From assembly GCA_029856145.1 (NCBI GenBank), contig JAHQWK010000004.1:32001-96000 (forward strand): DNA of 64,000 bases. The letters are read 5' to 3'. The notes under the pieces were generated by a model. It worked only from the letters and a program-made list of their open reading frames with translations. It did no database searches and was not told the origin of the DNA. The first letter of the stretch is position 1; each line of letters starts with the position of its first letter. Shown here in pieces: positions 3,908 to 19,775 of this stretch. This DNA comes from Promethearchaeia archaeon (GTDB lineage: Archaea > Asgardarchaeota > Lokiarchaeia > Sigyniarchaeales > SOKP01). The position numbers were made by a program, and so were the translations under genes.

Positions 3908-4741
3908 ATGTATGAATATAATATGATAGCAATGGATAAGGCTCAAAATATTAATACTAATTCAGAAAAGTTTCAAATGCTGGGATTTGGATTATTAAAT
4001 ATCTCAGATATAGAATCTGAAGGCACTTTTAAAATCATTCTTCAAAAAGGTATAGGAGTTCCTCTTATCCAAAATATTTTAGAACTCTATAAGAAAGAAA
4101 TTATAACCAAAAAACAAGGAAGCTCAATTATTCCATTAAATGAATTTACCATTCATATCCAATATTTCAATAATAAGGACAAAGAAATTTCTGTGATTTT
4201 GTATATGGAAGAAAAAGAACCAAGTATTGCGGTTAATTTTTCACAGCTTTACTTCCTGTCTAAAAAAATCAATAAAAAAATTCTTTCAAATGCTCCATTA
4301 TCTGAATTAGTCAAAATATTCGAAGACAAAATCAAGATTCCAAAATCTTCTGGAGTCATAGCTATCTTTGTTATTAGTTCCACAGGCAGTCCATTTCTTT
4401 CAAAAATTAATAAAAATCGCAACAATATAGCAGACCATGAAGTTCACATTGGTGGATTTATCTCTGCTTTGTTGTCGTTTTCAAATACAATTATTGGAGA
4501 AGAAACAGGGGCAAAATTGAAGGAAATAAACTTTGGGAATCAGCAATTTTACGTAATATCCAAAAGTAACGTAATTTTTGCCTTTTTAGTAGAAAATATG
4601 AATTCCTTGCTTCAAAGATATATGTATCTTATTGCAGATGAATTCATTTACGATTTCAACAATTATTTAAAAGGTTTTAATGGAGATGTAACTCCATTTG
4701 CATCTTTTGAAGATAAAATTAACCAATATTTTATTATTTAA
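3908..4741 (+). CDS. Protein with a C-terminal longin/sedlin-like domain; first gene of the che cluster
   Basis: C-terminal ~130 aa has the longin pattern IFVISSTGSPFLS...IGGFISALLSFS...LKEINFG...IFAFLV...FNGDVTPFASFEDKI; ends 20 nt before cheW. Confidence 0.7.
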   Translation: MYEYNMIAMDKAQNINTNSEKFQMLGFGLLNISDIESEGTFKIILQKGIGVPLIQNILELYKKEIITKKQGSSIIPLNEFTIHIQYFNNKDKEISVILYMEEKEPSIAVNFSQLYFLSKKINKKILSNAPLSELVKIFEDKIKIPKSSGVIAIFVISSTGSPFLSKINKNRNNIADHEVHIGGFISALLSFSNTIIGEETGAKLKEINFGNQQFYVISKSNVIFAFLVENMNSLLQRYMYLIADEFIYDFNNYLKGFNGDVTPFASFEDKINQYFII

Positions 4742-4761
4742 AAAATGAAGGTAAGAAAAAA

Positions 4762-5292
4762 ATGGTTCAAAAACAGGAATATGAAGATATGGATCAAATT
4801 TCCATCCTATCGTTTAAGATTGGTAGGGAAGAGTTCGTTATCGATCTCTTCGATGTGAAAGAAATAATTCAAGCAGGTCTAATAAGAAAATTACCAAAAA
4901 GCTTAGATTATATAGATGGAATCTATAATTACAGAGGGGAAATTATTCACATAATTAATTTAAAGAAAAAATTGAATTTGAATCAATATATTTTGTATTC
5001 AAGAAACTCCTCTATCGAAGAAGAATCAAGTACGTCGAAAAATTTCATTATAATTCTTAAAGTTGATAATAATCTGGTAGGATTTTATGTTGATCAAATA
5101 ATCAGTATTGATCATATTGATCCCACTGAGATTGTTGGATTAAGCCCAATCTTTCAAACTAATGTTGCTATGGAATATATTAAAGGAATTATTAACTTTG
5201 AACGGCGACCAAGAGTTATGCTTGATTTAAGCAAAATTTTTAGTGAAGTTGAGAAATTCAAAATTGAACAAGATTTATCATCATTAACATAA
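4762..5292 (+). CDS. cheW: Chemotaxis adaptor CheW
   Basis: LSFKIGREEFVIDL..VKEII, LPKS..YIDGIYNYRGEII, VGFYVDQI, YIKGI, LDL motifs. Confidence 0.93.
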   Translation: MVQKQEYEDMDQISILSFKIGREEFVIDLFDVKEIIQAGLIRKLPKSLDYIDGIYNYRGEIIHIINLKKKLNLNQYILYSRNSSIEEESSTSKNFIIILKVDNNLVGFYVDQIISIDHIDPTEIVGLSPIFQTNVAMEYIKGIINFERRPRVMLDLSKIFSEVEKFKIEQDLSSLT

Positions 5293-5312
5293 ATTAAAAA
5301 GGAGTTGATAAA

Positions 5313-5690
5313 ATGACAAATAATAAAAAAAAAGTTTTGATAGTTGATGATGCAGCCTTTACAAGGAACATGCTTAAAAATATAATAAACAAGATCGAAC
5401 AAATTGAAGTTATCGGTGAAGCTTCAAATGGAGTGGAAGCTATCTCTTTATACAAGAAATTAAATCCTGATTTAGTTACTATGGATTTGGTTATGCCTGA
5501 AAAGGGTGGTATTGAGGCAACTGAAGAGATTCTAAAAATTAACTCAAAAGCATTGATAGTAGTGGTTTCTGCACTCGGTCAGGAGGCTCTTGTACTTGAG
5601 GCAGCAAAAAAAGGGGCAAAGGACTTTATCCAAAAACCATTCAAAACAGAGCAAATATTAGAAGTTATGGATCGAATTTTAAAGAAATAA
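5313..5690 (+). CDS. cheY: Chemotaxis response regulator CheY
   Basis: Stand-alone REC domain: VDD, phospho-Asp in TMDLVMP, VSA, KPF; SD-like GGAG upstream; lies between cheW and cheA. Confidence 0.93.
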   Translation: MTNNKKKVLIVDDAAFTRNMLKNIINKIEQIEVIGEASNGVEAISLYKKLNPDLVTMDLVMPEKGGIEATEEILKINSKALIVVVSALGQEALVLEAAKKGAKDFIQKPFKTEQILEVMDRILKK

Positions 5691-5774
5691 CATCTCTCAC
5701 ATCTGGTTGAGATTCTGGACAATATCTTAAAAAAATAAAAAAAACAATGAAAAAAAAAAATTTAAGGTGATTAT

Positions 5775-7850
5775 GTGTCATCTAAAGACGATATAAAGCT
5801 TTTCATAAGTGAAGCCGAGGATCTGATTCAAAAAACGGAAGATGAAATTCTAAAATTAGAAGAAAATCCAAATGATTTAAAACCAATTCAGGAACTTTTT
5901 TTCACATTTCATGCACTAAAAGGATTAACAGCGATGGCAGGTTTTGACAACTTATCTAAATTTTGTCATCATTTTGAATCTTTTTTAGAAAATACTAAGG
6001 ATAAGAAAGAGTCTAAAATCAAAAGAGAAAATTTCATCGAAATGCTATTTGAGAGTATTGATGTATTAAGAAATGTCATAAAGAGAGTAAAAAAAGGAGA
6101 TTTAAGTGATATTGATAATAAATTTGTAGAAGATATTAAAAATAGTTTTGAAAGTTTTGAGAATGAGTATGATATCACTTTTATTCAGCCTTTAAACTCA
6201 GAGGAAGTTACCCAAATCCTTAAACAAAAAGATATCAAATCATTTAAGATATATATTCGCCTTGAAGAAACATGTGTTTTCAAAAAGGTAAGGTTATTTA
6301 TTATATTTAGAGCATTAAATGAAAATGGAAAAATTTGCTGGACTAATCCTGCTCCTGAAGATTTAGAAAAAGCTACTCTCAAAAATGAGTTTGAAATTTA
6401 CTTTTTTAGCAATAAAAATAAGGATAATATTTCTCATGTTTTAGATGAAATTCTTGAAATCGAAAGTATAGTTATTACTCCATTAAAATCTGAAGAATTC
6501 ATAAAAATAATTAATAGTCTTAAGGAAAAATGGGAAAATGAAAAACCAGAACCCTTAAGCGATGATTTCTTTGAAGATGATTTTGAAGAAGACGTTGATA
6601 CTCAAGAACTGGAGCGAGTTTCACAAATTGTAGGTGATTTCTCAGAAGATACCCTTAAAATAATGAGTGTTAAAGTTAATATTGAGTATATAGAGGAATT
6701 AATGAATTATTTTGGAGAATTAGTAATAATGAAGAATCATATCAATCAACTTCTAAAGGAAAAACAAGATAGAATAATCGTACGGTTAATAGATAAAATG
6801 GATAAGCCTTTTCTAGATATACAAGAAATACTTTTTAGATTAAAACTAGTTCGAGTTGATTCAACATTCAGAAAATATAAAAGACTTGTTCGCAATGTAG
6901 CAAATGAAACTGGTAAGAAAATAAAATTAATTCTTGAAGGAATAAATGTAGAAATTGATAGAAAAATCCTAGAAGAAATTAACACTCCGCTGGTTCAATT
7001 AATTAGGAATGCAATTTATCATGGAATCGAATCTCCAAGAGATCGAATTAAAAAACGGAAAATTGAAATTGGTATATTGAAAATAAAAACATTTAGAAGA
7101 GCAGGATCCATTTTCATAGAAGTTCAAGATGATGGCGCGGGGCTTAATTATGATACAATAAGGGAAAAGGTTGTGAAAAAAGGTTATTATGACTCAATTG
7201 AAGTGGAACAACTAGCAAACGAGGATTTACATAAGTTTATACTAATGCCCGGGTTCTCAACACTTTCAGAAGCAGATATAATCTCTGGTAGAGGTATGGG
7301 TTTAGCAATCGTGGCTGAAAAAATAAAAGAATTAGGTGGTGATTTTACTATTCAATCTCAAGCTGGTGTTGGTACAAAATTTACAATCATCGTTCCATTT
7401 ACAAGAGCAATATTAAAAGCACAACAAATTCAGATTTCTGATGATTTATTTGCAATTCCAACTGAAAACATTAAACAAATATACTTTTTCAATCCAAGTC
7501 AAGTTGAATATGTAGATGGCCAACAATTTTACAAGATAAATTCAAAATTAATGCCAATTATTCATTTAGATGAGTATTTAAATATGGTAGAAAAAAGTAC
7601 AACAAATTCTCATAAAAAAATTGCAATATGGTGTCAAGGAGATGAGGATAGTTCAGCAGTGTTTATTGCAGATAAACAATTACAACAATTAGATGTAGTT
7701 GTGAAACCATTCAAGTCTAACTATTCAGATTCACGGGATATTTTAGGATCAACAATTACAGGAGAAGGTTCAATATGTCTAATTATCGACGTTTTAAGTA
7801 TAATTTCATCTATTTTAAATGAAAATATAATATCAAATTTAAATTTATAA
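5775..7850 (+). CDS. cheA: Chemotaxis histidine kinase CheA (Hpt-P2-dimerisation-HATPase-CheW)
   Basis: Hpt FHALKG, P2 region KKVRLFIIFRAL, LMNYFGELVI, IRNA..HGIE, DDGAG, PGFST, SGRGMGL, C-terminal CheW domain; SD AGGTGA before the GTG start. Confidence 0.96.
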   Translation: MSSKDDIKLFISEAEDLIQKTEDEILKLEENPNDLKPIQELFFTFHALKGLTAMAGFDNLSKFCHHFESFLENTKDKKESKIKRENFIEMLFESIDVLRNVIKRVKKGDLSDIDNKFVEDIKNSFESFENEYDITFIQPLNSEEVTQILKQKDIKSFKIYIRLEETCVFKKVRLFIIFRALNENGKICWTNPAPEDLEKATLKNEFEIYFFSNKNKDNISHVLDEILEIESIVITPLKSEEFIKIINSLKEKWENEKPEPLSDDFFEDDFEEDVDTQELERVSQIVGDFSEDTLKIMSVKVNIEYIEELMNYFGELVIMKNHINQLLKEKQDRIIVRLIDKMDKPFLDIQEILFRLKLVRVDSTFRKYKRLVRNVANETGKKIKLILEGINVEIDRKILEEINTPLVQLIRNAIYHGIESPRDRIKKRKIEIGILKIKTFRRAGSIFIEVQDDGAGLNYDTIREKVVKKGYYDSIEVEQLANEDLHKFILMPGFSTLSEADIISGRGMGLAIVAEKIKELGGDFTIQSQAGVGTKFTIIVPFTRAILKAQQIQISDDLFAIPTENIKQIYFFNPSQVEYVDGQQFYKINSKLMPIIHLDEYLNMVEKSTTNSHKKIAIWCQGDEDSSAVFIADKQLQQLDVVVKPFKSNYSDSRDILGSTITGEGSICLIIDVLSIISSILNENIISNLNL

Positions 7851-7912
7851 TTAAAATTTTTTTTACAAATAACAAATTTATCAAATGAAGAAATACTTGG
7901 AGGAAAAATAAA

Positions 7913-9934
7913 ATGGGTTTTAAAAAGATTGACCATGACGAATTAAAAACAAAAATTAGCCCAAATTTTCTTGGCATCCCTATAAGGGAAGGTGGAAAGT
8001 TAGTACAGAAAAGTCAAAGAGAAAAGAAAATTGAATCTAGTTATACAGGTTCAATGTCAGAAGTATTAATATTAAATGAAGAATTTTTAGAATTCCAATA
8101 TCAAAATGATGGAACAAGAAAAGCAGTTACAGGTAACGGAAATATCTCAATATTTAATAATTCTGTTAAAGATAGAATTTGGGATGCAAATTTACAGTTT
8201 TCAGGCTCACAATTTGATAATCAAGAGAAAGAAAACAATATAAATTTAGGGATTTTTGAGCCTAGTTCAAATAAAATATTAAAATATGAAATTGTAAATT
8301 CCGATGATTTACCGGATTTAATAAAAGTAAATGAAAATATTGAAGTTCTGAGTGAAGATATTACTCAAGAAGGGTTAGAATTTCCTGAAAATGAAGAATT
8401 AAATGTATGTAATAAAAAACATTATTTACTAGTAATTGGAAAAGAAAATAAGGTAAAATTTTTAATTGATATAGTAAATGTCTCAAATTCGATGTTAGAA
8501 AATATCAAGTTTAAGAAATTATTTGTTAATAATTTTTATGACTTAGAATTTGACTGTAGCAAGAGCAAAGAATTTAAATTTACTAATAATTCTGTAGAAT
8601 GTACTATAAACGGTCTAAACCCTGGAGAAAAAGCAGAATTAACAATCACCGCTAATATTTTCCCTAAGAAGAAGGAAAATATTAAAACTGGTAAAATCGA
8701 AATAACCTACAACTTATCATCAAACGTAATTTCAGGCGTGAAAATCAATCAATTCTCAGCATATTCTCATGCAATGCATGCTATTGAGAAAGTAGAGAAA
8801 AATGATGCTCCAAATCATTGGGAATGTTCATTAATTTTCGAAAACCATAGTGACTTTAAATTGAAGTTAAATTCAATTCTGATCTATGATAAGACCAAAT
8901 CGAAAAAAATTTTAGATTTAGATTTTAGTACATCTGGTACTACAAAAATTAATCCTCGTGGAATATATAAAACCCAACATTTTAATTTGATTGATGAAAA
9001 AGAACCTATTTTCTCAAGAAAAGTCGAATATTCTGTTGATTATAAAACAGAGAACAATTCAATGATTACCACGAGATTTGATGACATTATCTTTAAAATA
9101 GTTAATATTACGATAAAAAAGAAATTACCTGAACAAGAAATTAAATCATTTGAGGAGACTACACTAAATTCTGAAATTATTATAAACAACCAAGGTACTG
9201 TTCCAATTAAAGGACTTCGAATAGTTGAAAAAATTCCTGAAGATTTCTTGCCACCAAGAAATTTATCTGATTTTACACTGTATAAATCATCTGGTAAACT
9301 AGAAATCGATGATATTGAATTAAATTTAAGTCCAGATGATGATGATCCCTCACATGAGCATATTATTGAAATAAGTATTAATTTAAAAAATGATACTTCA
9401 AAATCAGTTATTAGTACAGAAGATTTCTTAGAATTAAAATATCCATTTAAAGCAATTACTCCTAATTATAAAAAAGATTACGATTTCCCTGTTAAAGTCT
9501 ACGCTTATTATCCGATGTATGAAAAATCTGAAGTAGAAGGGCTTAGGGGACATTATGTTTTAATGGATGATCTCTCTAGTAAGGATACGTCTTCTTTAAA
9601 AATCACACATAAACGGCGGAAATTAATGATTGGAAAACAAATCTTTCCTGGAAGGAGTAGTGATGAATTTGCTATTTATATTGTGGCAAAGAACGGTTCA
9701 AATATTAAACTTAGTGATGTAGACATTACAGATGCTTTTCCAAATTCTTTTGAACTAATTTCCTCAAATGTAGAACATAAGATTAGCAAATCTAAAAATA
9801 ACGGAGAACAAAAAATTTCTTTCACAATCGATTCACTCCTACCTTATCAAGAAAAAGAGATAATGTATTATCTAAAAAGCTTAAGCGGAAAGGATGTATC
9901 ACAATCAGAATTAGAGTCATTTTTTGTTGGATAA
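7913..9934 (+). CDS. Large cytoplasmic beta-sandwich repeat protein (several DUF11/Ig-like modules)
   Basis: Repeated modules such as ITIKKKL..EIIINNQGTVPIKGLRIVEKIPEDF and IGKQI..IYIVAKNGSNIKLSDVDITDAFPNSFELI; no signal peptide or TM segment; SD GGAGG. Confidence 0.6.
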   Translation: MGFKKIDHDELKTKISPNFLGIPIREGGKLVQKSQREKKIESSYTGSMSEVLILNEEFLEFQYQNDGTRKAVTGNGNISIFNNSVKDRIWDANLQFSGSQFDNQEKENNINLGIFEPSSNKILKYEIVNSDDLPDLIKVNENIEVLSEDITQEGLEFPENEELNVCNKKHYLLVIGKENKVKFLIDIVNVSNSMLENIKFKKLFVNNFYDLEFDCSKSKEFKFTNNSVECTINGLNPGEKAELTITANIFPKKKENIKTGKIEITYNLSSNVISGVKINQFSAYSHAMHAIEKVEKNDAPNHWECSLIFENHSDFKLKLNSILIYDKTKSKKILDLDFSTSGTTKINPRGIYKTQHFNLIDEKEPIFSRKVEYSVDYKTENNSMITTRFDDIIFKIVNITIKKKLPEQEIKSFEETTLNSEIIINNQGTVPIKGLRIVEKIPEDFLPPRNLSDFTLYKSSGKLEIDDIELNLSPDDDDPSHEHIIEISINLKNDTSKSVISTEDFLELKYPFKAITPNYKKDYDFPVKVYAYYPMYEKSEVEGLRGHYVLMDDLSSKDTSSLKITHKRRKLMIGKQIFPGRSSDEFAIYIVAKNGSNIKLSDVDITDAFPNSFELISSNVEHKISKSKNNGEQKISFTIDSLLPYQEKEIMYYLKSLSGKDVSQSELESFFVG

Positions 9935-9983
9935 ATAGAAAAAAAAATAATAAAATTTAAGAAAAAAAAATGGAGGAAGTATT

Positions 9984-10835
9984 ATGAGACTACAATATTA
10001 TGAAACAATGGATGATAAATCGAAAGAATATGTATTGTATCTTATCGAGCAGATTGTTCCACAATTTACTAAAAGTGAACTGGATACCTTTTTACAAGAT
10101 CTTACTATAAAACCTACTAAGAAAAGTAAGAGTTCAAAATCAAAATCAGATCAAAAATACATTCAAATTGGGAATGATATTGGAAAAACTGCTGATTTAT
10201 CCAAACTAACTAAAGAACAATTAAGATTATGTTTTCAAATATTTATAAGTAGAGAAAAAAATGATACATTTGCAGTAAAGTGGCGTTTTTATCAATACAT
10301 TAAATACGTGTTAAATCTAAATATAAAATCAGTAAAAATAAATCTTGATCCAAATATTGATCGATTATTAGATTTTATTATTGAAACTGTCGATAAGGAA
10401 ATAATTCTAGTTTTATGCTATGATGTTTTAGAATTAAAAGACTTTAATACAGCAATAAATCAATTAAATGAATTTGCAAAAAAACAAAATTTAATTCCTG
10501 ATAGGATTATTTTTACGACAAGTAAATCATTCCGGAATATACCAATTGATAGTCCTATTAAAATCATAAATAAGGAAATAGAACCAGAGTTATGGATCGA
10601 ATGGATTGAAGAAAATTGCCCTTTCAATAAAGAAGACTTGTTAATTTTAAATAACTCTGAATTAAAAGTTGCAGGTTTTAATTTTACCAGTACAGACGAT
10701 TTATTAAATTATATTTTTAAGTATTCAAATGGCGGGGGTCAAATTTCAATTTATAAGCAATTAGATTTTTTTACTGAAGTTAGTGAGGAGGAACCCGAAG
10801 TAGAATTAATTTGGAAAGGAATTATGTTAAAATAA
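9984..10835 (+). CDS. Hypothetical protein in the che cluster, possibly a degenerate PD-(D/E)XK-like fold
   Basis: 283-aa ORF with SD GGAGG; LDFIIET..EIILVLC resembles a nuclease core but lacks the ExK motif. Confidence 0.55.
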   Translation: MRLQYYETMDDKSKEYVLYLIEQIVPQFTKSELDTFLQDLTIKPTKKSKSSKSKSDQKYIQIGNDIGKTADLSKLTKEQLRLCFQIFISREKNDTFAVKWRFYQYIKYVLNLNIKSVKINLDPNIDRLLDFIIETVDKEIILVLCYDVLELKDFNTAINQLNEFAKKQNLIPDRIIFTTSKSFRNIPIDSPIKIINKEIEPELWIEWIEENCPFNKEDLLILNNSELKVAGFNFTSTDDLLNYIFKYSNGGGQISIYKQLDFFTEVSEEEPEVELIWKGIMLK

Positions 10836-10878: not shown

Positions 10879-12858
10879 ATGATAAAAAGCGAAACAGAAG
10901 GAATTGAGTTTGGAGAAAGTGTAAATGTTGTAATAATTCAAGTTCTTGATGAGAAATATCTCATTGAAGTAGAAAATGTTAAAGAAATATATGTCCCAGG
11001 AGATAAAATAGTTCCAATTCCATTAACAGAAAAAAGTATAGTTGGTATCATTAATATTAGGGGAGAGATTTATTCAATCATTTCATTAAGACATAATATT
11101 AATGATAATGATGTTGATTATGGGTTGAGTGATAAATCAAGAATTCTATTATTAGAATATAAAGATTTAAAAATTGCATTGTTAGTAGATGCAGTAATAG
11201 GAGTTAAAGATATTCCTTTTTCAGTCTTTAAAAAACAGGGCACGATTGTAAAAACTAATATTGATTTTAGATTAATTAAACTAACAGGCATTTTTCAAGA
11301 TGAATCATTAATATTATTAGATCTAGATGCTTTAATTTTACCCTACATTAAATCCTTAGGTAGAAAAATAGAGAAAAAGGTAGAAGCAAAACCGAAAATT
11401 ATTGGAGGACCTAAAGTAAAACCCAAACTATCTCCTAAACCGACACCTACAGTTGAATCCACAGTTGTAATCCCTCAGGAAACCTACGTTCCAATGAACT
11501 TATCATCCATTCCTGAAGATGAAATTGGCAAGGGGGTTTCTTTATCAGCTGAACAAGAAGATATACTCAAAGAAATAGGCAATATTGGTGCTGGAAATGC
11601 GGTCACAGCCTTATCTCGATTAGTTAAAAAGAAAATTGATGTGACCTTAACTGATGTAGGAATAATACCTTTAGATGAATTGCCAGAACAATTTGGTGGA
11701 TCTAAAGAGAAGGTATGTGGAATTTTCTGCCATATAGATAAACCATCTCAAGCAACTATTTTAAATATTTTCGAAATGACTCCTTTGATGCAAATGATTG
11801 CAGATTTAGCAGGAAAAAAATCTAAAATCAATCCAAGTAAAGTTAAAACTAAAAAAGATCTTGATGATTTTGCAGTTTCTACAATTGTAGAAATGGGAAA
11901 TATTATGGCGGGGCATTATGCTTCAGCACTAGCAGATTTATTAGGTACAAAATTAATGATTGACATTCCTGAATTTACGATGAGTGAAGCTGGAGAGATT
12001 GGAGAATTTCTAACTAAAGAGTTGAAATCAATTGCTGAATTTTTCATAATAATCAAAACTTCAATAAAAGTCGCCGATTTGAAACTTAAAGGAATGTTTT
12101 TCTTTATCCCTGATCTTGAAACTTTGAAAATATTTTTCGACAAACTAGGAATAGAGCATGAAATATCTATCAAAAGTTTAAAAACTCAGAAAACACTTGA
12201 GCTAATAGATGTTTCTAATATAAAACTCACAGAAATTCAAAGAGATGCTTTACAAGAAGTTGGTAATATTGGTGCAGGAAATGCGGCTAATGCATTAGCT
12301 CAAATGATTAATAAAAGAGTTGATATAAATATCCCATCTGTTGAAATGGTTGAATTAGATGAGTATGCTAATACAATTAGTAATAAGAATGAAAAACTCT
12401 TAGTTGCTTGGAGCAATGTTATTGGTAAAACAAGAGCTACAGTTTTAACATTGTTTAACATTAAAGATGCAATTGATATAACATCCATAATCTTAGATGA
12501 TAGAGACAAGAAACAAATTGACTTAAGGAAGAAAATTATTATGGCATCAGATTTTCCAGAGCTTTATCATAGTGCAATTTCAGAACTAGGTCACATCTTG
12601 GGAAGCCATTATGTAAGTGCAATAGGTGATCTATTAGGCCTGCGACTCATGACCGAGCCCCCTGATGTCTCTGTCGATACAGGAAACCAATTATTCGAAA
12701 TATTAAAAGAGGAAATTGGTTTACTTAAGAAATTATCGTTAGTTATCACAACGAGCGTTATAATCACAGATATCAAAATTACAGGAACGTTCTTATTCAT
12801 ACCTAATTTAGAAACATTACAAGAATTATTGGATGCACTTTTAAGGTTTTATTCATAA
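10879..12858 (+). CDS. CheW-CheC-CheC fusion protein
   Basis: N-terminal CheW domain (VKEI, IVPIP, VGIINIRGEI, LLVDAVIGV), Pro/Lys linker, then two CheC domains (EIGNIGAG/EMGNIMAG and EVGNIGAG/ELGHILGS). Confidence 0.9.
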   Translation: MIKSETEGIEFGESVNVVIIQVLDEKYLIEVENVKEIYVPGDKIVPIPLTEKSIVGIINIRGEIYSIISLRHNINDNDVDYGLSDKSRILLLEYKDLKIALLVDAVIGVKDIPFSVFKKQGTIVKTNIDFRLIKLTGIFQDESLILLDLDALILPYIKSLGRKIEKKVEAKPKIIGGPKVKPKLSPKPTPTVESTVVIPQETYVPMNLSSIPEDEIGKGVSLSAEQEDILKEIGNIGAGNAVTALSRLVKKKIDVTLTDVGIIPLDELPEQFGGSKEKVCGIFCHIDKPSQATILNIFEMTPLMQMIADLAGKKSKINPSKVKTKKDLDDFAVSTIVEMGNIMAGHYASALADLLGTKLMIDIPEFTMSEAGEIGEFLTKELKSIAEFFIIIKTSIKVADLKLKGMFFFIPDLETLKIFFDKLGIEHEISIKSLKTQKTLELIDVSNIKLTEIQRDALQEVGNIGAGNAANALAQMINKRVDINIPSVEMVELDEYANTISNKNEKLLVAWSNVIGKTRATVLTLFNIKDAIDITSIILDDRDKKQIDLRKKIIMASDFPELYHSAISELGHILGSHYVSAIGDLLGLRLMTEPPDVSVDTGNQLFEILKEEIGLLKKLSLVITTSVIITDIKITGTFLFIPNLETLQELLDALLRFYS

Positions 12859-12882: not shown

Positions 12883-12896
12883 TTTTTTTTCTTTTT
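12883..12896 (+). terminator. Candidate archaeal oligo-T terminator after cheW-cheC-cheC
   Basis: TTTTTTTTCTTTTT 25 nt after the stop codon. Confidence 0.4.
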
Positions 12897-12945
12897 AAAA
12901 ATTTAAAATAAAAAACAAGAATATCCAAATCAAATATAAATTCTC

Positions 12946-12952
12946 TATAAAA
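12946..12952 (+). promoter_or_regulatory. Candidate TATA box for a leaderless gelsolin-cheR-cheB-cheD-cheC-cheB transcript
   Basis: TATAAAA begins 28 nt upstream of ATG 12974, which has no SD; AT-rich background limits certainty. Confidence 0.4.
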
Positions 12953-12973
12953 TACAAAGAAACAATCGATCTC

Positions 12974-13519
12974 ATGTTAAAAACTAGTTATTACGATTAT
13001 ATTTATAAAGTTGATGGAGAAACTCTTAAACTTCGACCAGAGAAAATTTTTGAAGCTGGGGGGGTATATCTAATTATAGATAAAGAATTAAAATTGATTT
13101 GGATATGGGCAGGTAATCATTCACGTTTATTTCACAGATACATGGCCGCAAATTATGCTGGGAAACTAAAAACAAAGAAAAAATTCTATAACTTCAAATA
13201 TGAAGTCATAAAGCAAGGGCTTGAACCTACTGAATTTCATATAATCTTTAAGGAAATCAAAGAGAACAATGCTGAATTGAATTATCCTGGACAATCTAGA
13301 CATGGAATGATTAAAAATGAGACTTCTGGTTCAACTGGTTTACCAAGCCAGAAAGTCGAATCAGAAATTACGGAAAGTAATTTAAATTTATCAAGATCAG
13401 TGAAATCTCGTATTAAAAAGATTTTATCTGAAATTAAAGAAATACAAATGCATATAAAATATTCAATGAATCATATTCAACAACGTTTTGCTGAAATTGA
13501 AAAGGTATTAGATAAATAA
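12974..13519 (+). CDS. Gelsolin/villin-like single-domain protein with a C-terminal coiled coil
   Basis: IYKV...VYLIID...IWIWAG..S...AA.YA..L...VIKQG.EP.EF is the gelsolin-repeat consensus; C-terminal heptads IKKILSEIKEIQMHIKYSMNHIQQRFAEIEKVL. Confidence 0.85.
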   Translation: MLKTSYYDYIYKVDGETLKLRPEKIFEAGGVYLIIDKELKLIWIWAGNHSRLFHRYMAANYAGKLKTKKKFYNFKYEVIKQGLEPTEFHIIFKEIKENNAELNYPGQSRHGMIKNETSGSTGLPSQKVESEITESNLNLSRSVKSRIKKILSEIKEIQMHIKYSMNHIQQRFAEIEKVLDK

Positions 13520-13530
13520 AGTGTTTAGAA

Positions 13531-13737
13531 GTGATACGAATTGATGATATTCAAATTGATGAGGATTACTATGACCTTCTAATTCACTTATTAATGAAAA
13601 CGACTGGATTGAATTTAGACTATTATGGAAGAAATTTTGTAGAAAAAAGAATTAAATCCAGAATGATACGAGTTAACTCTCAGAGAGACTTAAACTTAAT
13701 AGATTCATCAAATTGCATATATATGAAAGATTATTAA
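13531..13737 (+). pseudogene. cheR: cheR remnant: N-terminal domain fused in frame to a C-terminus-like tail, SAM-binding domain missing
   Basis: YDLLIHLLMKTTGLNLDYYGRNFVEKRIKSRMIRVN matches the CheR N-terminal domain; ends ...NCIYMK like CheR C-termini; only 68 aa; sits directly before cheB. Confidence 0.8.
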
Positions 13738-13742
13738 AGAAA

Positions 13743-14888
13743 ATGTCAATTAATGTATTAGTTGCAGAAGACTCAAGTTTTCAGAGAAAATTGATTGCAG
13801 ATATGTTATTAACAAGTGAGGAAATTGCAACTGTAGATATTGCAAGAAATGGGAGAGAAGCAATTGAAAAAATTGAAAATACAAATCCAGATGTATTAAT
13901 ATTAGATTTAATGATGCCAGAAGTTGATGGAATAACCGTATTCAAGTTTCTTTCAGAACATTATCCAATACCTACAATTATATTTTCTGCTAAGAATCCA
14001 GAAACATTAGAACCTTCCGTTCAAACATTATTAATGGGGGCTTTTGATTTTTTACCAAAACCTCAAGGTTTATGGGAAGAGGAATTCCCAAAATATAAAG
14101 AAAAATTAGTTTCTAGTACTTTATATGCTGGAAAAATTAAAAAAACCTATGAGAAGCGTAATCTTTTAATTAAAAAATCAGCTGCTAAACCTCCTTCTTT
14201 GGATGCATATAGCGAGCAATATCAGATAAGTATAAAATCAAAACCAAAAATAATAGAGGTTCCAAAGGAAAAAATAATGAAAAGAAGTAGGATACAATCC
14301 AATACAATAGTCATTGGTACTAGCACTGGGGGCCCTAGAACTTTAAAATCAATATTAAAAGAAATCCCTAAAGATTTTCCTAGCCCAATTTTAATAGTAC
14401 AGCATTTAGATCCATACTTCATGAAAGAACTTTCAAAATCTCTAAATCAAATATGCAATATTGAAATTAAAATTCCTGTAAATGGAGAAAAAATTCTTCC
14501 TGGAAAAGCTTATCTTAGTCCAGGAGGAAAACACATGAAAGTTGTTCTGAGAAATAATATACCATGTATTAAAATATTTAAAGGCGAACCAGTAAATTTC
14601 TGCATGCCTTCTGTGGATGTATTGTTTTTTTCAGCAGCAGAAGTATATAAAAATCAAATACTTGGGATTTTATTAACCGGATTAGGAGAGGATGGGGCTG
14701 CCGGATTAGAAGCAATCAAAAAACAAGGTGGCAAAACTATCGCTGAATCAGAGCAAACGTGTGTAGTTTATGGTATGCCTAAAGCAGCTGTAAAAAGAGG
14801 AGCTGCTAACTTTATTGTCCCAAACTATGAAATTAAAGATCACATGATGAGATTTACTAAAAGAAAGGAAATTAACATAACAAATTAA
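13743..14888 (+). CDS. cheB: Chemotaxis methylesterase/deamidase CheB (REC plus esterase), copy 1
   Basis: REC AEDS..LDLMMP..KP; catalytic GTSTGG, VQH, LLTGLGEDG, VVYGMP; start moved to ATG 13743 to avoid overlap with cheR. Confidence 0.95.
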   Translation: MSINVLVAEDSSFQRKLIADMLLTSEEIATVDIARNGREAIEKIENTNPDVLILDLMMPEVDGITVFKFLSEHYPIPTIIFSAKNPETLEPSVQTLLMGAFDFLPKPQGLWEEEFPKYKEKLVSSTLYAGKIKKTYEKRNLLIKKSAAKPPSLDAYSEQYQISIKSKPKIIEVPKEKIMKRSRIQSNTIVIGTSTGGPRTLKSILKEIPKDFPSPILIVQHLDPYFMKELSKSLNQICNIEIKIPVNGEKILPGKAYLSPGGKHMKVVLRNNIPCIKIFKGEPVNFCMPSVDVLFFSAAEVYKNQILGILLTGLGEDGAAGLEAIKKQGGKTIAESEQTCVVYGMPKAAVKRGAANFIVPNYEIKDHMMRFTKRKEINITN

Positions 14889-14912
14889 TAATTTAACTTT
14901 TTAAATTTAAAG

Positions 14913-15452
14913 GTGAATAATATTAAAACCTATGGACGTATTGAAAAAATGGATAGAAATGGTGAGGCTTTCTTACCCATAGGTCATTATTTTATCACAA
15001 ATTGTAAGAATAAACCAAAAAATATTCATCCAAAAGTATCAATTTATGGATTAGGCTCTTGTATTGCTCTAATTCTTATTGATTTCAAAAATAAAGTATG
15101 TGGAATGTCTCACATTTTACTTCCTAAAGCCCGTCTAAATAAAACAATAGATTATCCTCATAAATATGCAGATCTCTCTTTAAAATTATTAATTCAAGAT
15201 CTAAAAAAGCATGGAGCTGTGAAAGAAAACATAATGGCAATCATAGTAGGGGGTTCAAAAATTTTTAATTTAGATGAAAATTTTATGGGGATTGATAATA
15301 CTAAAGCTATTAAAGAACAATTGGAAAAATTAAAGATTAAAGTTATCGGAGAAGATACTGGAGGATCTGAAGGGAGGGGGATAATATTTGATACTAAAGA
15401 TTTCGCTGTTTACGTTAAATTAACAAGAGAACAAAATTATAAAAAAATTTAA
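14913..15452 (+). CDS. cheD: Chemoreceptor glutamine deamidase CheD
   Basis: GLGSCIAL, GMSHILLP, KYAD, GGSKIF, EDTGG..GR. Confidence 0.93.
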   Translation: MNNIKTYGRIEKMDRNGEAFLPIGHYFITNCKNKPKNIHPKVSIYGLGSCIALILIDFKNKVCGMSHILLPKARLNKTIDYPHKYADLSLKLLIQDLKKHGAVKENIMAIIVGGSKIFNLDENFMGIDNTKAIKEQLEKLKIKVIGEDTGGSEGRGIIFDTKDFAVYVKLTREQNYKKI

Positions 15453-15496
15453 TATATAAAAAGAGAATGTCATAAAAATTGGAAGAGGAAATAAAA

Positions 15497-16165
15497 ATGA
15501 ATGAAAAGGTCACAAATCAATCTGCTAAGATAAACCTAACAGAAGCACAATTGGATATGTTAAAAGAAATTGGCAATATCGGTTCTGGACATGCAATAAC
15601 AGCACTTTCTGAGATATTGAATAAAAATGTAGAAGTTTCATTAACATCAGCAGAAATACATTCCTTTTGGAAAGTTCCAGATCTGTTTGATAATCATAAT
15701 ATAGAAGTAGTAGTTATATATTCTGAAATTCCCTTTAATTCGGATCTCGCAATTATCCAAATATTTCCCAAAGAATCAATAATTAATCTGATAAATTTAT
15801 TAAACGATTATGATAAAAAATCCATAGATAATGTAAATAGCAATAATGATTTGGACGATTTCTCCTATAGCATTATAAATGAAATCGGTAATATTTTGAG
15901 TGGCCATTATGCTAGTGCTTTAGCAGATTTGTTGTCAATTAAACTAATCCCAAAGGTGCCAAAAGTAGCAATTGATACATTAAATGCCATCCTAAATTGC
16001 ATTATCGCAAAATATTCCCAATTGATAGATTATTTGATATTAATAAATACAAAATTAATAGTTTCAGATTTGAATATAAATGGAACAATTTGCCTTATTC
16101 CAAGTATTGAAATTCTAAGGAGTTTATTTGAGATTTTAAACGTAAAATATGATATGAACTTATAA
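15497..16165 (+). CDS. cheC: CheY-P phosphatase CheC
   Basis: DMLKEIGNIGSGHAITALS and EIGNILSG..P motifs; SD GAGG before ATG 15497 (TTG 15479 is an alternative start). Confidence 0.93.
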   Translation: MNEKVTNQSAKINLTEAQLDMLKEIGNIGSGHAITALSEILNKNVEVSLTSAEIHSFWKVPDLFDNHNIEVVVIYSEIPFNSDLAIIQIFPKESIINLINLLNDYDKKSIDNVNSNNDLDDFSYSIINEIGNILSGHYASALADLLSIKLIPKVPKVAIDTLNAILNCIIAKYSQLIDYLILINTKLIVSDLNINGTICLIPSIEILRSLFEILNVKYDMNL

Positions 16166-16178
16166 GTAGGAGTTTTAT

Positions 16179-17555
16179 ATGTCGATAGACGTATTAATAG
16201 CCGATGACAGTATGTATTTAAGAAAGAGTATAGCAGATATCCTTAAAGAACATGATTTAATAAATATAGTTGATTATGCTAAGGACGGAATTGAAGCGGT
16301 TAAATTTGTAAAAAAATACAGCCCTGATGTTTTAGTTTTAGACTTAGTGATGCCTAAAATGAACGGATTAGATGCATTCAAACTAATTATGGAAGGCCAT
16401 CCAACTCCTACAGTTATTCTATCAGCTATTAGCCCTAAAAATTTGGATTCCTCTATTCAAGCATTGTTAATGGGAGCTTTTGATTATATTATAAAACCTG
16501 GAGGCCTTGGTGCTAAAGATTTGCCTAGGTTTCGTGAAGAATTACTTGCTAAAGTATTATTAGCTTCACAATCTCAGATAAAGAGAATTTTTAAGACAGA
16601 AGAAAATTTATTAAGTAAGCGTAAATCACTTCGCCAAGAAATGATCGATCGAATTTTTGATTTTGGACAATACATAAATCAACTAAAACCTATTGAAGAA
16701 ATTGAAGAAAAACGGGAAATTGACTCTTTTGAAATAATGAAAGTAAAGGCAATTCTCAAGGATGAAATTAAACCAGCAGTAATTGATGAAACCTCCAGTA
16801 AAACAGAAATCAAATCAACTAAAAAACTAGAGGGTGAAATCAGTTCAAAAATACAATCAAAATCAAGTGAATCATTAAAAATACTTAAAACAAGAAAACA
16901 GAAATTAGCTTCTGTATTAGATAATAAAAAGAAAGAAGTTGCATCCATTCCTGATCTTTCCCCTGTTAGAGGATTTGCTTTAACTTCAAATGTTATAGTT
17001 ATGGGTGCTAGTGTGGGGGGCCCCAGAACAATTACTACAATCTTAAGAGAAATTCCCAGAAATTATAACACTCCAATTTTAATTGTTCAACACTTATCTT
17101 CTCATTTTACAGAAGCTTTTGCAGATAATTTAAATATGGAATGCGAATTAGAAATAAAAGTTGCGAAAAACGGAGATCAACTTCAATCAGGTCAAGTTTA
17201 TATCGCACCTGGAGATAAGCATATGGAAATTACCGTAGATAATAAAACACCTTCAATTAAAATCTATAAGGGAGCACCAGTTAATTTTTGTATGCCTTCT
17301 ATCGATGTTTTATTTTTTTCTGCGGCAAAAATTTTTAGAAATCGAGCTATGGGGATACTTCTAACCGGTATGGGTTCTGATGGTGTTGAAGGGTTAGGAG
17401 CAATAAAAAGAGTAGGCGGAAAAACAATCTCCGAGGCAGAGGAAACATGTATACTATATGCAATGCCAAAATTCGCAGTAGAAAAAGGTTTCGCTGATTT
17501 TATCTTGCCAAATTATGAAATTAAAGATCAAATTACTAAATTCATTAAAAATTAA
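16179..17555 (+). CDS. cheB: CheB copy 2 with a long charged interdomain linker
   Basis: REC ADDS..LDLVMP..KP; roughly 130-aa Lys/Glu/Ser-rich linker; GASVGG, VQH, LLTGMGSDG. Confidence 0.93.
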   Translation: MSIDVLIADDSMYLRKSIADILKEHDLINIVDYAKDGIEAVKFVKKYSPDVLVLDLVMPKMNGLDAFKLIMEGHPTPTVILSAISPKNLDSSIQALLMGAFDYIIKPGGLGAKDLPRFREELLAKVLLASQSQIKRIFKTEENLLSKRKSLRQEMIDRIFDFGQYINQLKPIEEIEEKREIDSFEIMKVKAILKDEIKPAVIDETSSKTEIKSTKKLEGEISSKIQSKSSESLKILKTRKQKLASVLDNKKKEVASIPDLSPVRGFALTSNVIVMGASVGGPRTITTILREIPRNYNTPILIVQHLSSHFTEAFADNLNMECELEIKVAKNGDQLQSGQVYIAPGDKHMEITVDNKTPSIKIYKGAPVNFCMPSIDVLFFSAAKIFRNRAMGILLTGMGSDGVEGLGAIKRVGGKTISEAEETCILYAMPKFAVEKGFADFILPNYEIKDQITKFIKN

Positions 17556-17585: not shown

Positions 17586-19775
17586 TTACCAAGATATTCC
17601 TTTAAAAAACTTAATCTCTTGAATTAATTTTTGAGATTCGTGTTGTGGAATCTCCATAAATGCATAAAATTCATTCTGCCAAAATGCTCTTCCGGAACTA
17701 GTTGACCGAATCTCTTCAGCAAATTTAATTGAATGTCTCACAGGTATTAAAATTTCCATAACTGCTTGATATTCTTTGTCTTGGTCTATATTCTTAATCT
17801 TAGTAGAATATTTTGATAGTAATGTAATAGTATTTTTAATGTAATCAGGTGGAAGTTGGATGATGGTATGATATATTGGCTCTAAAAGAATTAAATCCGC
17901 TTCAATTAATCCAGTCTTGATTGCCTCATAAAACATAGAAGATAATTCGGTAAAAACATTTTCATGTGGAATATTTTGAATATTCAAATCTTCAATTGTA
18001 ATTTTAATTTCTGCTAATTTTTCACTACAAAGTGGACCATTTAAATGGATTTTTTCAATTATCTCAGAGATTGCATTTTTATAAAATTCATTTAATTCAA
18101 ATTCTCCCTTGTATATCAATATGTTTTGATCATAATCACTCATCCAGAAATTTTCGATCTCTTCTTCACTAAGACATGTTTTTTCGCTCAAGATCTCTTT
18201 AAATTTTATGATAGGTTTTATTGTTTTATAATCAATATTGCGAAAAAACCTTACAGTTTTATCATCTAGCCGTTCAATTTTCAATTTAAGAGAACTTTGA
18301 CTATTGGGAGAGTTTACTGATATTAAAGAAGAATGATTTCGACATGATTCTTTAAAAACAGCTCTAGGTTCAGAAGTAGAAACATTTACTCCTCTTTTTC
18401 CAATTTCATTTGCAGATACTTCCAAATGGAGAGGACCTGCACCCGACAAGAGAAATTCACCATTTTCTTCATTTATATCGAATTTCAGATTTGGATCTTC
18501 AATTAACAGATTTTCTATTAATTCTTTCATTTTATCTAGATCTCTTAGATATTCTGGTTCAATTGAAACGGAAACGACGGGGCTTGTAACATATTTCACA
18601 CTTTCAAATGGTACCATGTCATCAATATGGTTACTGTCTATTATTGTTTCACCACTTTTTATCTTCTTGAGGCCTTCTATTGCAAGGATATTACCAACAG
18701 GTATGGTTTCTACTTGCTCCCTTCTTTGTCCCATGAAAATGGCAATTCGTTGAATTTTCTCATAAGTATTTTCATTTAAAAGAAAAATTTCTTTTTTGTT
18801 TGTACAGCTTCCAGAAAAAATCCTTCCCGTTGATATTAATCCGTGTTTATCAACTTGTACTTTACTTAAACACACAATTAAAGGACCTTTTGGGTCACAA
18901 TTTAGCATAGCTTTTCCTAATTCAGAATTAATATCTCCATCCCAGATTTTTTCAATTCTATATTTTTGTGCTTCTATTGGATTTGGTAAATGATCCACAA
19001 CCATCTCCAATATAGCTTTATGAATTGGAAAATATGTAGCCAAATCAGCATAAGTTTCCTTTGTATAGGTATCTTTATTATACCTCTCTCTAATACCTAT
19101 AAATTTCAAGTTGCTTTTTTCTATAATGTTTAATGTAAAACCCCATTTATGAAGAGCTGAACCAAATGCAACATTTCCTGCTAAAGGTGATACTTTCCAC
19201 CTCTTATTAAAAGGATGTTCAGCATATCTTTCTATTAGAGTGTTGAATGACTTAATTATTCGTATATACTTCTTTTTTATATCTTCATCAGAAAGCTTCA
19301 ATTCTCTAATTAGGCGATCTACTTTATTAATGAATAATACTGGTTTAACTCCTTCTTGGAGGGCTTGTTTAATTACAGTTTCAGATTGTGTAATTACTTC
19401 TTCAACTGCGTCGACTACCACTACCACTCCATCCACTAATCTTAATGCGCGAGTTACTTTTCCACTAAAATCTAAATGACCCGGTGTATCAACTAAATTA
19501 ATAAGAAAGGGTTCATGCCCTTCAAGAGATTTCTCATAATATAAAGAAATGTTTGCTGATTTCATTGTAATGCCTCGTCTTTGTTCTTCTTCAAGAAAAT
19601 CTAAAGCACGAGCTTCACCTGCCAAATCTGGTGATAAAAATCCTGCTTCACTCAGTAAAGAATCAGAGAGTGTTGTTTTTCCGTGGTCGATGTGCCCTAC
19701 TAAAGCCATACACCTTATTCTAGTAGGGTCCTCCATTAAATTTAGTATTTCCACAATTTCTTTCCTTCGAGGCAT
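17586..19775 (-). CDS. Elongation factor 2 paralog (aEF-2p type)
   Basis: GHIDHGKTT, RGITM, DTPGHLDF, NKVD, GSA, LLEPIY; domain IV loop reads NIPHENVF rather than HRG. Confidence 0.9.
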   Translation of the reverse strand: MPRRKEIVEILNLMEDPTRIRCMALVGHIDHGKTTLSDSLLSEAGFLSPDLAGEARALDFLEEEQRRGITMKSANISLYYEKSLEGHEPFLINLVDTPGHLDFSGKVTRALRLVDGVVVVVDAVEEVITQSETVIKQALQEGVKPVLFINKVDRLIRELKLSDEDIKKKYIRIIKSFNTLIERYAEHPFNKRWKVSPLAGNVAFGSALHKWGFTLNIIEKSNLKFIGIRERYNKDTYTKETYADLATYFPIHKAILEMVVDHLPNPIEAQKYRIEKIWDGDINSELGKAMLNCDPKGPLIVCLSKVQVDKHGLISTGRIFSGSCTNKKEIFLLNENTYEKIQRIAIFMGQRREQVETIPVGNILAIEGLKKIKSGETIIDSNHIDDMVPFESVKYVTSPVVSVSIEPEYLRDLDKMKELIENLLIEDPNLKFDINEENGEFLLSGAGPLHLEVSANEIGKRGVNVSTSEPRAVFKESCRNHSSLISVNSPNSQSSLKLKIERLDDKTVRFFRNIDYKTIKPIIKFKEILSEKTCLSEEEIENFWMSDYDQNILIYKGEFELNEFYKNAISEIIEKIHLNGPLCSEKLAEIKITIEDLNIQNIPHENVFTELSSMFYEAIKTGLIEADLILLEPIYHTIIQLPPDYIKNTITLLSKYSTKIKNIDQDKEYQAVMEILIPVRHSIKFAEEIRSTSSGRAFWQNEFYAFMEIPQHESQKLIQEIKFFKGISW

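Follow-up and report, generated by a model that had tools for sequence, protein, structure and literature searches.

A single-domain gelsolin tied to a che cluster of Asgard archaea, a candidate link between chemosensing and actin

The 181-aa soluble protein encoded among the che genes of the window (the whole 64,000-nt stretch of a Lokiarchaeia-type genome analysed here) is a single-domain gelsolin with a helical tail. Comparison of gene content across Asgard genomes identifies it as a dedicated chemosensory accessory, one that is kept, lost and moved with che genes. Many Asgard archaea carry che genes, and putative receptor arrays have been seen by cryo-ET (PMC9834061). The che-linked gelsolin bears on the function of these arrays and on their relation to the cytoskeleton; at stake is whether, in the archaea most closely related to eukaryotes, prokaryotic chemosensing is physically coupled to actin of the eukaryotic type. 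A search of largely open-access literature turned up no report that connects gelsolins with che genes. Judged from its sequence and genomic setting, the protein is a new, che-dedicated Asgard single-domain gelsolin, and a concrete but unproven candidate for a link from bacterial-style sensing to eukaryote-like actin. The features of the locus are collected in Table 1.

Table 1. Features of the che-linked gelsolin locus, in window coordinates.
Feature	Position	Strand	Basis or remark
First cluster half: 277-aa accessory gene, cheW, cheY, cheA, 673-aa DUF11 protein, 283-aa unknown protein	3908..10835	+	
cheW-cheC-cheC fusion, near-constant upstream neighbour	10879..12858	+	Pfam: CheW and four CheC stretches
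T-tract following the stop codon of cheW-cheC-cheC, perhaps an archaeal terminator	12883..12896	+	Sequence; recurs in most orthologous gaps
Possible promoter: a motif shared by close relatives, with TATAAA (12935-12940) at its end, plus a second TATAAAAT (12946-12953)	12919..12953	+	
Che-linked single-domain gelsolin gene with helical tail	12974..13519	+	181 aa, ORF
Gelsolin domain, residues 6-97	12989..13264	+	ProGel-like, without Ca2+ site residues
Long helix, residues 50-66, actin-binding helix of the gelsolin fold	13121..13171	+	Alignment
Ser-rich linker, residues 110-138, disordered	13301..13387	+	pLDDT <50, AF2
C-terminal helix, residues 140-181, probable oligomerising coiled coil	13391..13516	+	
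cheR remnant, 68 codons	13531..13737	+	CheR_N, E 2.1e-05
cheB, cheD, cheC, second cheB	13713..17555	+	

The first-pass annotation had recognised gelsolin motifs in the protein (VYLIID, IWIWAG..S, AA.YA, VIKQG.EP.EF). They are present as claimed, and the gelsolin fold is borne out by profile search and structure prediction. The match to PF00626 in Pfam (14.7 bits, E 0.028) lies under the curated cut-off of 21 bits, but the alignment of 49 orthologues matches Thorarchaeota ProGel (7C2F) with E 8.7e-08, and 33 of the 49 match PF00626 individually at E<=0.1 (best 1.9e-4). The AlphaFold (AF2) model of the 181-aa protein has a mean pLDDT of 80, with values of about 90-95 over most of the gelsolin domain, and contains a mixed sheet packed on a long helix together with the W.G and G.E..F motifs. 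Gelsolin-family folds were found throughout the best 50 matches when the model was searched with Foldseek, and ProGel 7C2F came first in the VIA wide structure search (Z 12.2, rmsd 2.0 Å over 85 residues). Sec23 was matched by the model with a Z of only 7.7 (VIA). Position 87, just before the Phe of the last motif and presumably the place of the Sec23 arginine finger, is mostly Glu or Asp and never Arg among the rows listed. No match to the CheF family (PF04283) was obtained in Pfam, and no CheW-like or ParA/MinD ATPase domain was detected in the protein by Pfam, NCBIfam or structure. Matches in the ESM Atlas were to unnamed Promethearchaeota clusters only, all <0.9. Wherever a source taxon is given, the 158 homologues all come from Asgard archaea. 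The same genome encodes one Lokiactin and about seven other gelsolin-type proteins.

Residues W45, G47, E84, P85 and F88 are invariant across the alignment of che-linked gelsolins, as are S50, L52, F53, R55, Y56, A58, G63 and K64 of the long helix, which is followed by a basic stretch. The helix aligns with that of ProGel and retains the L-F-x-basic-hydrophobic-M pattern of the actin-bound form. Within the genus, dN/dS is about 0.16 for the whole gene, 0.054 for the gelsolin domain, 0.024 for the long helix 50-66, 0.79 for the linker 110-138 and 0.16 for the C-terminal helix 140-181. These values are rough, given nearly saturated synonymous sites and non-independent pairs. At 84% identity the gelsolin domain is second only to CheY (91%) in conservation within the cluster; the long helix reaches 96-97%, and the linker, at 20%, drifts freely. 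As controls, 98% identity was obtained across a similar set of genomes for the actin-binding helix of 2DGel domain 1, and 58% and 78% for the helices of two other single-domain gelsolins from the same genomes. For Lokiactin itself, most of the genus genomes that gave a full-length match show 98-100% identity. The conservation of the helix shows that a binding surface at the canonical actin site is under constraint, whatever its partner.

That partner may be other than actin. The gelsolin fold could have been co-opted as a protein- or lipid-binding module of the chemosensory complex, with the actin contact lost; CheC, CheY, MCPs, the DUF11 protein and anionic archaeal lipids are then possible partners. 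The sub-cut-off Pfam score agrees with such a change of role, as do the net charge of +7 over residues 50-72 and a helix conservation equal to that of CheY (dN/dS of about 0.025). Against this, the helix has the pattern that ProGel shows in its actin complex, and each of the five Thorarchaeota gelsolins assayed in vitro was active on actin (PMC7444086). A module that has given up actin is considered possible, though rather unlikely.

Both Ca2+-site residues are missing from the che-linked gelsolin in the alignment, and Ca2+ control is therefore unlikely. On gelsolin G1 numbering, the type II Glu position (E in the 2DGel helix) is H54 and the type I Asp position is K66.

The architecture of one domain plus a tail, also proposed from the first reading, is reproduced in the AF2 model, in which residues 112-136 are disordered and residues 141-180 form a single helix of about 40 aa. 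The coiled coil had been assigned to dimerisation or docking. By heptad count, Ile occurs at every seventh position of the tail (147, 154, 161, 168 and 175), and in GCN4 variants Ile at heptad positions favours trimers or tetramers. The Ile-rich heptads suggest a trimer or tetramer, beyond a dimer. Oligomerisation would not be universal in the family, since two diverged members are tail-less. The VIA structure search with the tail matched only generic long helices, and in a profile comparison the tail did not align with the tail of a sister gelsolin family. A fused, longer form of the che-linked gelsolin was not found, which is weak evidence.

Among described gelsolins ProGel, which was solved bound to actin (Akil et al. 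2020, PMC7444086; PDB 7C2F), is the best match in both sequence and structure, and it shares the single domain, the lack of Ca2+ sites and the hydrophobic/basic pattern of the long helix. It has no tail, whereas the che-linked gelsolin carries about 85 extra residues (the linker and the Ile-rich tail) and is 24-28% identical to it; ProGel is present in all Asgard phyla, and the che-linked protein is confined to genomes with one type of che cluster. One-domain gelsolins with a coiled-coil tail (1DGelX) have been described as well (PMC7444086), and the combination of a single gelsolin domain with a C-terminal region predicted as coiled coil is the same here. However, reports of 1DGelX come from every Asgard phylum and give no link to che genes (Akil et al. 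2020), while the che-linked family occurs in one class and forms a clade of its own (SH-aLRT 94) among the sequences placed in a quick tree. The Asgard 2DGel proteins (7C2G, 7C2H, 7WHF, 7WHG; PMC9433394) have the same fold and a similarly conserved long helix, but they possess two domains, a WH2-like motif and Ca2+ sites, against one domain and no site residues in the che-linked gelsolin. The genome's own 2DGel is encoded on contig C9.

The gene had been placed from 12946, where the TATAAAAT hexamer region does begin; its ATG lies 28 nt later, at 12974. The 11-nt gap to the next gene was given correctly. That gene does match CheR_N as annotated, but only an in-frame remnant of cheR is left: by tblastn against the full CheR of a relative, CheR residues 1-49 are joined in frame to 317-335, with about 270 codons deleted. 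The intact cheR of this genome is on contig C29. The proposed position of the gelsolin gene at the head of a cheR-cheB-cheD-cheC-cheB unit is not borne out as the conserved link. Of the 36 GTDB loci, 21 have cheR downstream (a remnant in three), 5 have cheB, 4 a Roadblock-GTPase gene, 3 cheD and 2 an unrelated gene, and the remaining one stops at a contig end. The upstream gene is the cheW-cheC-cheC fusion in 34/34 GTDB loci with upstream DNA and, among 61 metagenome loci, in 51 of the 55 with enough DNA. Thus, the constant tie of the gelsolin gene is to cheW-cheC-cheC and not to cheR. It was retained intact where cheR or the Roadblock-GTPase gene was lost.

Several minor features of the cluster were recorded. 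Pfam and NCBIfam gave no support for calling the 277-aa accessory longin-like. In several relatives (L051, L052, L065) cheR is likewise cut to in-frame N- and C-terminal remnants, with differing break points, and an intact cheR lies elsewhere. Contig C2 of the present genome encodes a 683-aa CheR-like/CheD fusion. Most relatives carry a gene for a 318-aa Roadblock-small GTPase protein between cheC and the second cheB; in the present genome it is cleanly absent (16166-16178). In the closed genome of a relative (G005; L037, L036) the cluster is split into parts more than 1 Mb apart, and the gelsolin gene is with cheW-cheC-cheC and cheR, not with cheA. An EF-2-like gene (17586-19775, minus strand) converges on the che cluster; together with purN and a 636-aa gene it marks a conserved insertion site, which is empty in che-negative relatives.

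The T-tract and TATA box noted upstream by the first-pass annotation are both present, but T7+ tracts occur in 100/316 (32%) and TATAWA in 38/316 (12%) of comparable intergenic gaps of the same genome. The TATA at -28 is kept only in a few close relatives, the T-tract in most orthologous gaps. In a single sequence both are weak signs, near background in gaps of 82% AT. A Shine-Dalgarno motif is absent before the gelsolin gene and present before most other genes of the cluster, which fits, but does not prove, a transcript start at the gelsolin gene. A sigma-70 promoter and terminator scan, which does not cover archaeal signals, returned nothing. The T-tract and possible promoter between the gelsolin gene and its upstream neighbour would suit an ordinary regulator of actin, brought into the cluster on a single occasion, driven by a promoter of its own and without functional link to chemosensing. 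The main synteny, which traces to a single ancestral event, agrees with such a passenger gene.

The occurrence of the gene was followed in 400 Asgard genomes, with Loki-type CheA defined by at least 55% identity. An orthologue is carried by 41 genomes, all in the window's own class. Loki-type CheA is present in 46, among them 41/41 of the gelsolin carriers, and an orthologue was found in 0/354 genomes without it (37 with other CheA types included), counts in which kin genomes are not independent. Four of the five CheA-positive genomes without the gene (G007, G226, G192, G195) have contig breaks and were not counted as losses. The fifth, G060, has a truly intact cluster of this type, with the DUF11 and 283-aa genes but no gelsolin gene. 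Mapped on a marker-gene tree of 30 genomes from the genus, the cluster underwent at least nine changes between presence and absence, and the gelsolin gene was never left behind. The deletion ends at empty cluster sites differ between genomes, pointing to repeated independent loss of an ancestral cluster. Being lineage-restricted and often lost, the che-linked gelsolin is not necessarily informative about the ancestor of eukaryotes. A passenger gene would also disappear in block deletions, which speaks for the landed-regulator explanation, yet a domain with dN/dS of about 0.05 was kept in none of the genomes lacking Loki-type CheA across all these changes. Such a domain is best read as being useful only together with the cluster.

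The strongest evidence against a chance association comes from members that have moved. Contigs from several samples place a full-length orthologue (51% identical) away from the core cluster, with an MCP gene on either side, and in a second population a truncated gelsolin copy lies after an MCP gene. The relocated gene is preceded by an ORF of 36 codons, which proved not to be left over from cheC. A tail-less member heads a three-gene run gelsolin-cheC-cheY, and another relocated member follows a coiled-coil-CheD fusion. The relocated members and the window protein form one clade (SH-aLRT 94) in a quick tree used only for its two clades, the MCP-flanked copy being represented by P0139. A more diverged protein, P0173, is encoded beside a differently arranged che cluster with a CheA that is 27% identical; its branch is long and weakly supported, and as a further che-linked relocation it is suggestive only. 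The chance of landing beside an MCP gene is roughly 0.2-1%, and in three or four rearranged settings the neighbours are once more che genes. The passenger explanation is largely refuted by these relocations and is held to be very improbable.

The neighbourhoods, in every case a che gene and never an actin gene, also agree with a gelsolin module that no longer contacts actin, as does the position of a sister family before FIST, luxE/luxC, by which gelsolin domains appear to have been recruited repeatedly to signalling operons. The proteins of this sister family (170-225 aa; L085-L090, L123) are of the gelsolin-plus-tail type. Their genes constantly have a FIST/FIST_C sensory gene, luxE and luxC immediately downstream, and in at least one genome Roadblock-like genes precede them.

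No canonical motility output was found in the genome of the window. Archaellin was not found in this 97%-complete genome and was found in 1/61 relatives, CheF was found in 0/135 family genomes, and no T2SSF/ArlJ pilus platform was found in the genome. Its T2SSE hits are weak, partial matches in long ORFs without a platform gene and were rejected. The closed genome G055 (6,035,313 bp) has six archaellin-family matches, four of them over the cut-off (L042-L044; G055:C1:5214429-5218784, also 859980-865961), and three che loci of other types, without a che-linked gelsolin.

The gelsolin itself might be the output: bound by CheY-P, or by a CheC-like domain in the role of a FliM/FliY-type switch, it would sever, cap or bundle Lokiactin. 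It would then be the CheF equivalent of crawling Asgard archaea, steering their protrusions, and a Che-to-actin link of a kind not described in any organism. CheF (PF04283; PMC9126983) is comparable as a small accessory encoded with che genes and a candidate connection from CheY to a motility machine; its fold is unrelated, and it joins the ArlCDE archaellum switch, whereas CheF and archaellin were not found here. That no canonical output was found favours this direct role, as do the missing Ca2+ sites, which leave room for another regulator, and the existence of the gelsolin-cheC-cheY mini-operon. In addition, Thor 1DGelX, of similar architecture, severs without Ca2+ (PMC7444086), and in CheF, too, a C-terminal tail makes the contact with CheY (PMC9126983). 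Were the gelsolin an essential output, it ought to be universal, yet the cluster of G060 is intact without the gene. The relocation among MCP genes better fits a role in the array, and the cluster holds other candidates, namely the Roadblock-GTPase and the DUF11, 277-aa and 283-aa proteins. Taxis has not been demonstrated in Asgard cells, most of which migrate randomly (PMC13716822). Direct switching of the gelsolin is judged unlikely. The first-pass annotation had called the protein the best candidate output or adaptor of the pathway; its tie to the che system proves much stronger than could be seen from the sequence at hand, but output is one reading only, because the relocations beside MCP, CheC and CheD genes point to the receptor array and an intact cluster can lack the gene.

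The reading tentatively favoured is that the che-linked gelsolin is a dedicated, Ca2+-independent adaptor tying the chemosensory complex or its receptor arrays to Lokiactin filaments. The near-invariant long helix would bind actin weakly, in the cleft between subdomains 1 and 3 or on the side of the filament, as in ProGel. The Ile-rich tail would form a trimer or tetramer on flexible linkers and so provide avidity, and the tail or the basic stretch would dock on the array, through an MCP coiled coil or the array-bound CheW-CheC-CheC protein. Arrays, with the source and sink of CheY-P, would in this way be anchored or positioned on actin-filled protrusions, and steering would arise from local signalling, not from CheY-P switching the gelsolin. 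Such anchoring would resemble the job done in swimming cells by ParP/ParC of Vibrio (PMC5706961), where ParP binds MCPs and CheA, or by MinD of Haloferax (bioRxiv 10.1101/2020.04.03.021790). These are accessory tethers or positioners of chemoreceptor arrays and functional analogues only: the che-linked gelsolin has no CheW-like or ParA/MinD ATPase domain, and its proposed anchor is actin. If true, actin anchoring would be a new way to position arrays.

The array adaptor is favoured because, after relocation, the gene has receptor and adaptation or phosphatase genes as its neighbours, and because the intact cluster of G060 does without it. It is supported by the ProGel-like fold, the conservation of the helix (96%) and of Lokiactin, the strict co-occurrence with Loki-type CheA and the repeated joint changes between presence and absence. 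The failure to find archaellin, CheF or a T2SSF/ArlJ platform, the putative arrays seen by cryo-ET and the crawling of Asgard cells on Lokiactin also speak for it. The crawling occurs on actin-filled protrusions, and five gelsolins co-precipitate with Lokiactin (PMC13716822); the same paper does not mention chemotaxis. It is weakened by G060 and the 37 genomes with other CheA types, all without the gene, by the tail-less members and by block deletions that remove passengers too. Taken together, the two actin-based readings, tethering of arrays and direct output, have a somewhat better than even chance of being correct.

A second Lokiactin paralogue (83-85% identical) was noted in 5/24 genus genomes, all five CheA-positive (L157-L161: G023:C7, G024:C7, G007:C12, G006:C84, G021:C109). 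It is absent from the genome of the window and not near che genes, and it adjoins a gene of about 410 aa that is profilin-like by eye. Outside the main cluster, a CheA P2-like domain is fused to a CheC module in two genomes of a related genus (L098, L099). Four MCP matches lie elsewhere in the genome of the window. At L324:6394-13774 an array of short MCP genes, each preceded by a gene for a 96-97-aa membrane protein, is followed by an ODP/flavodoxin gene, and a similar pair of a small gene and an MCP gene is present on contig C9 of the window's genome.
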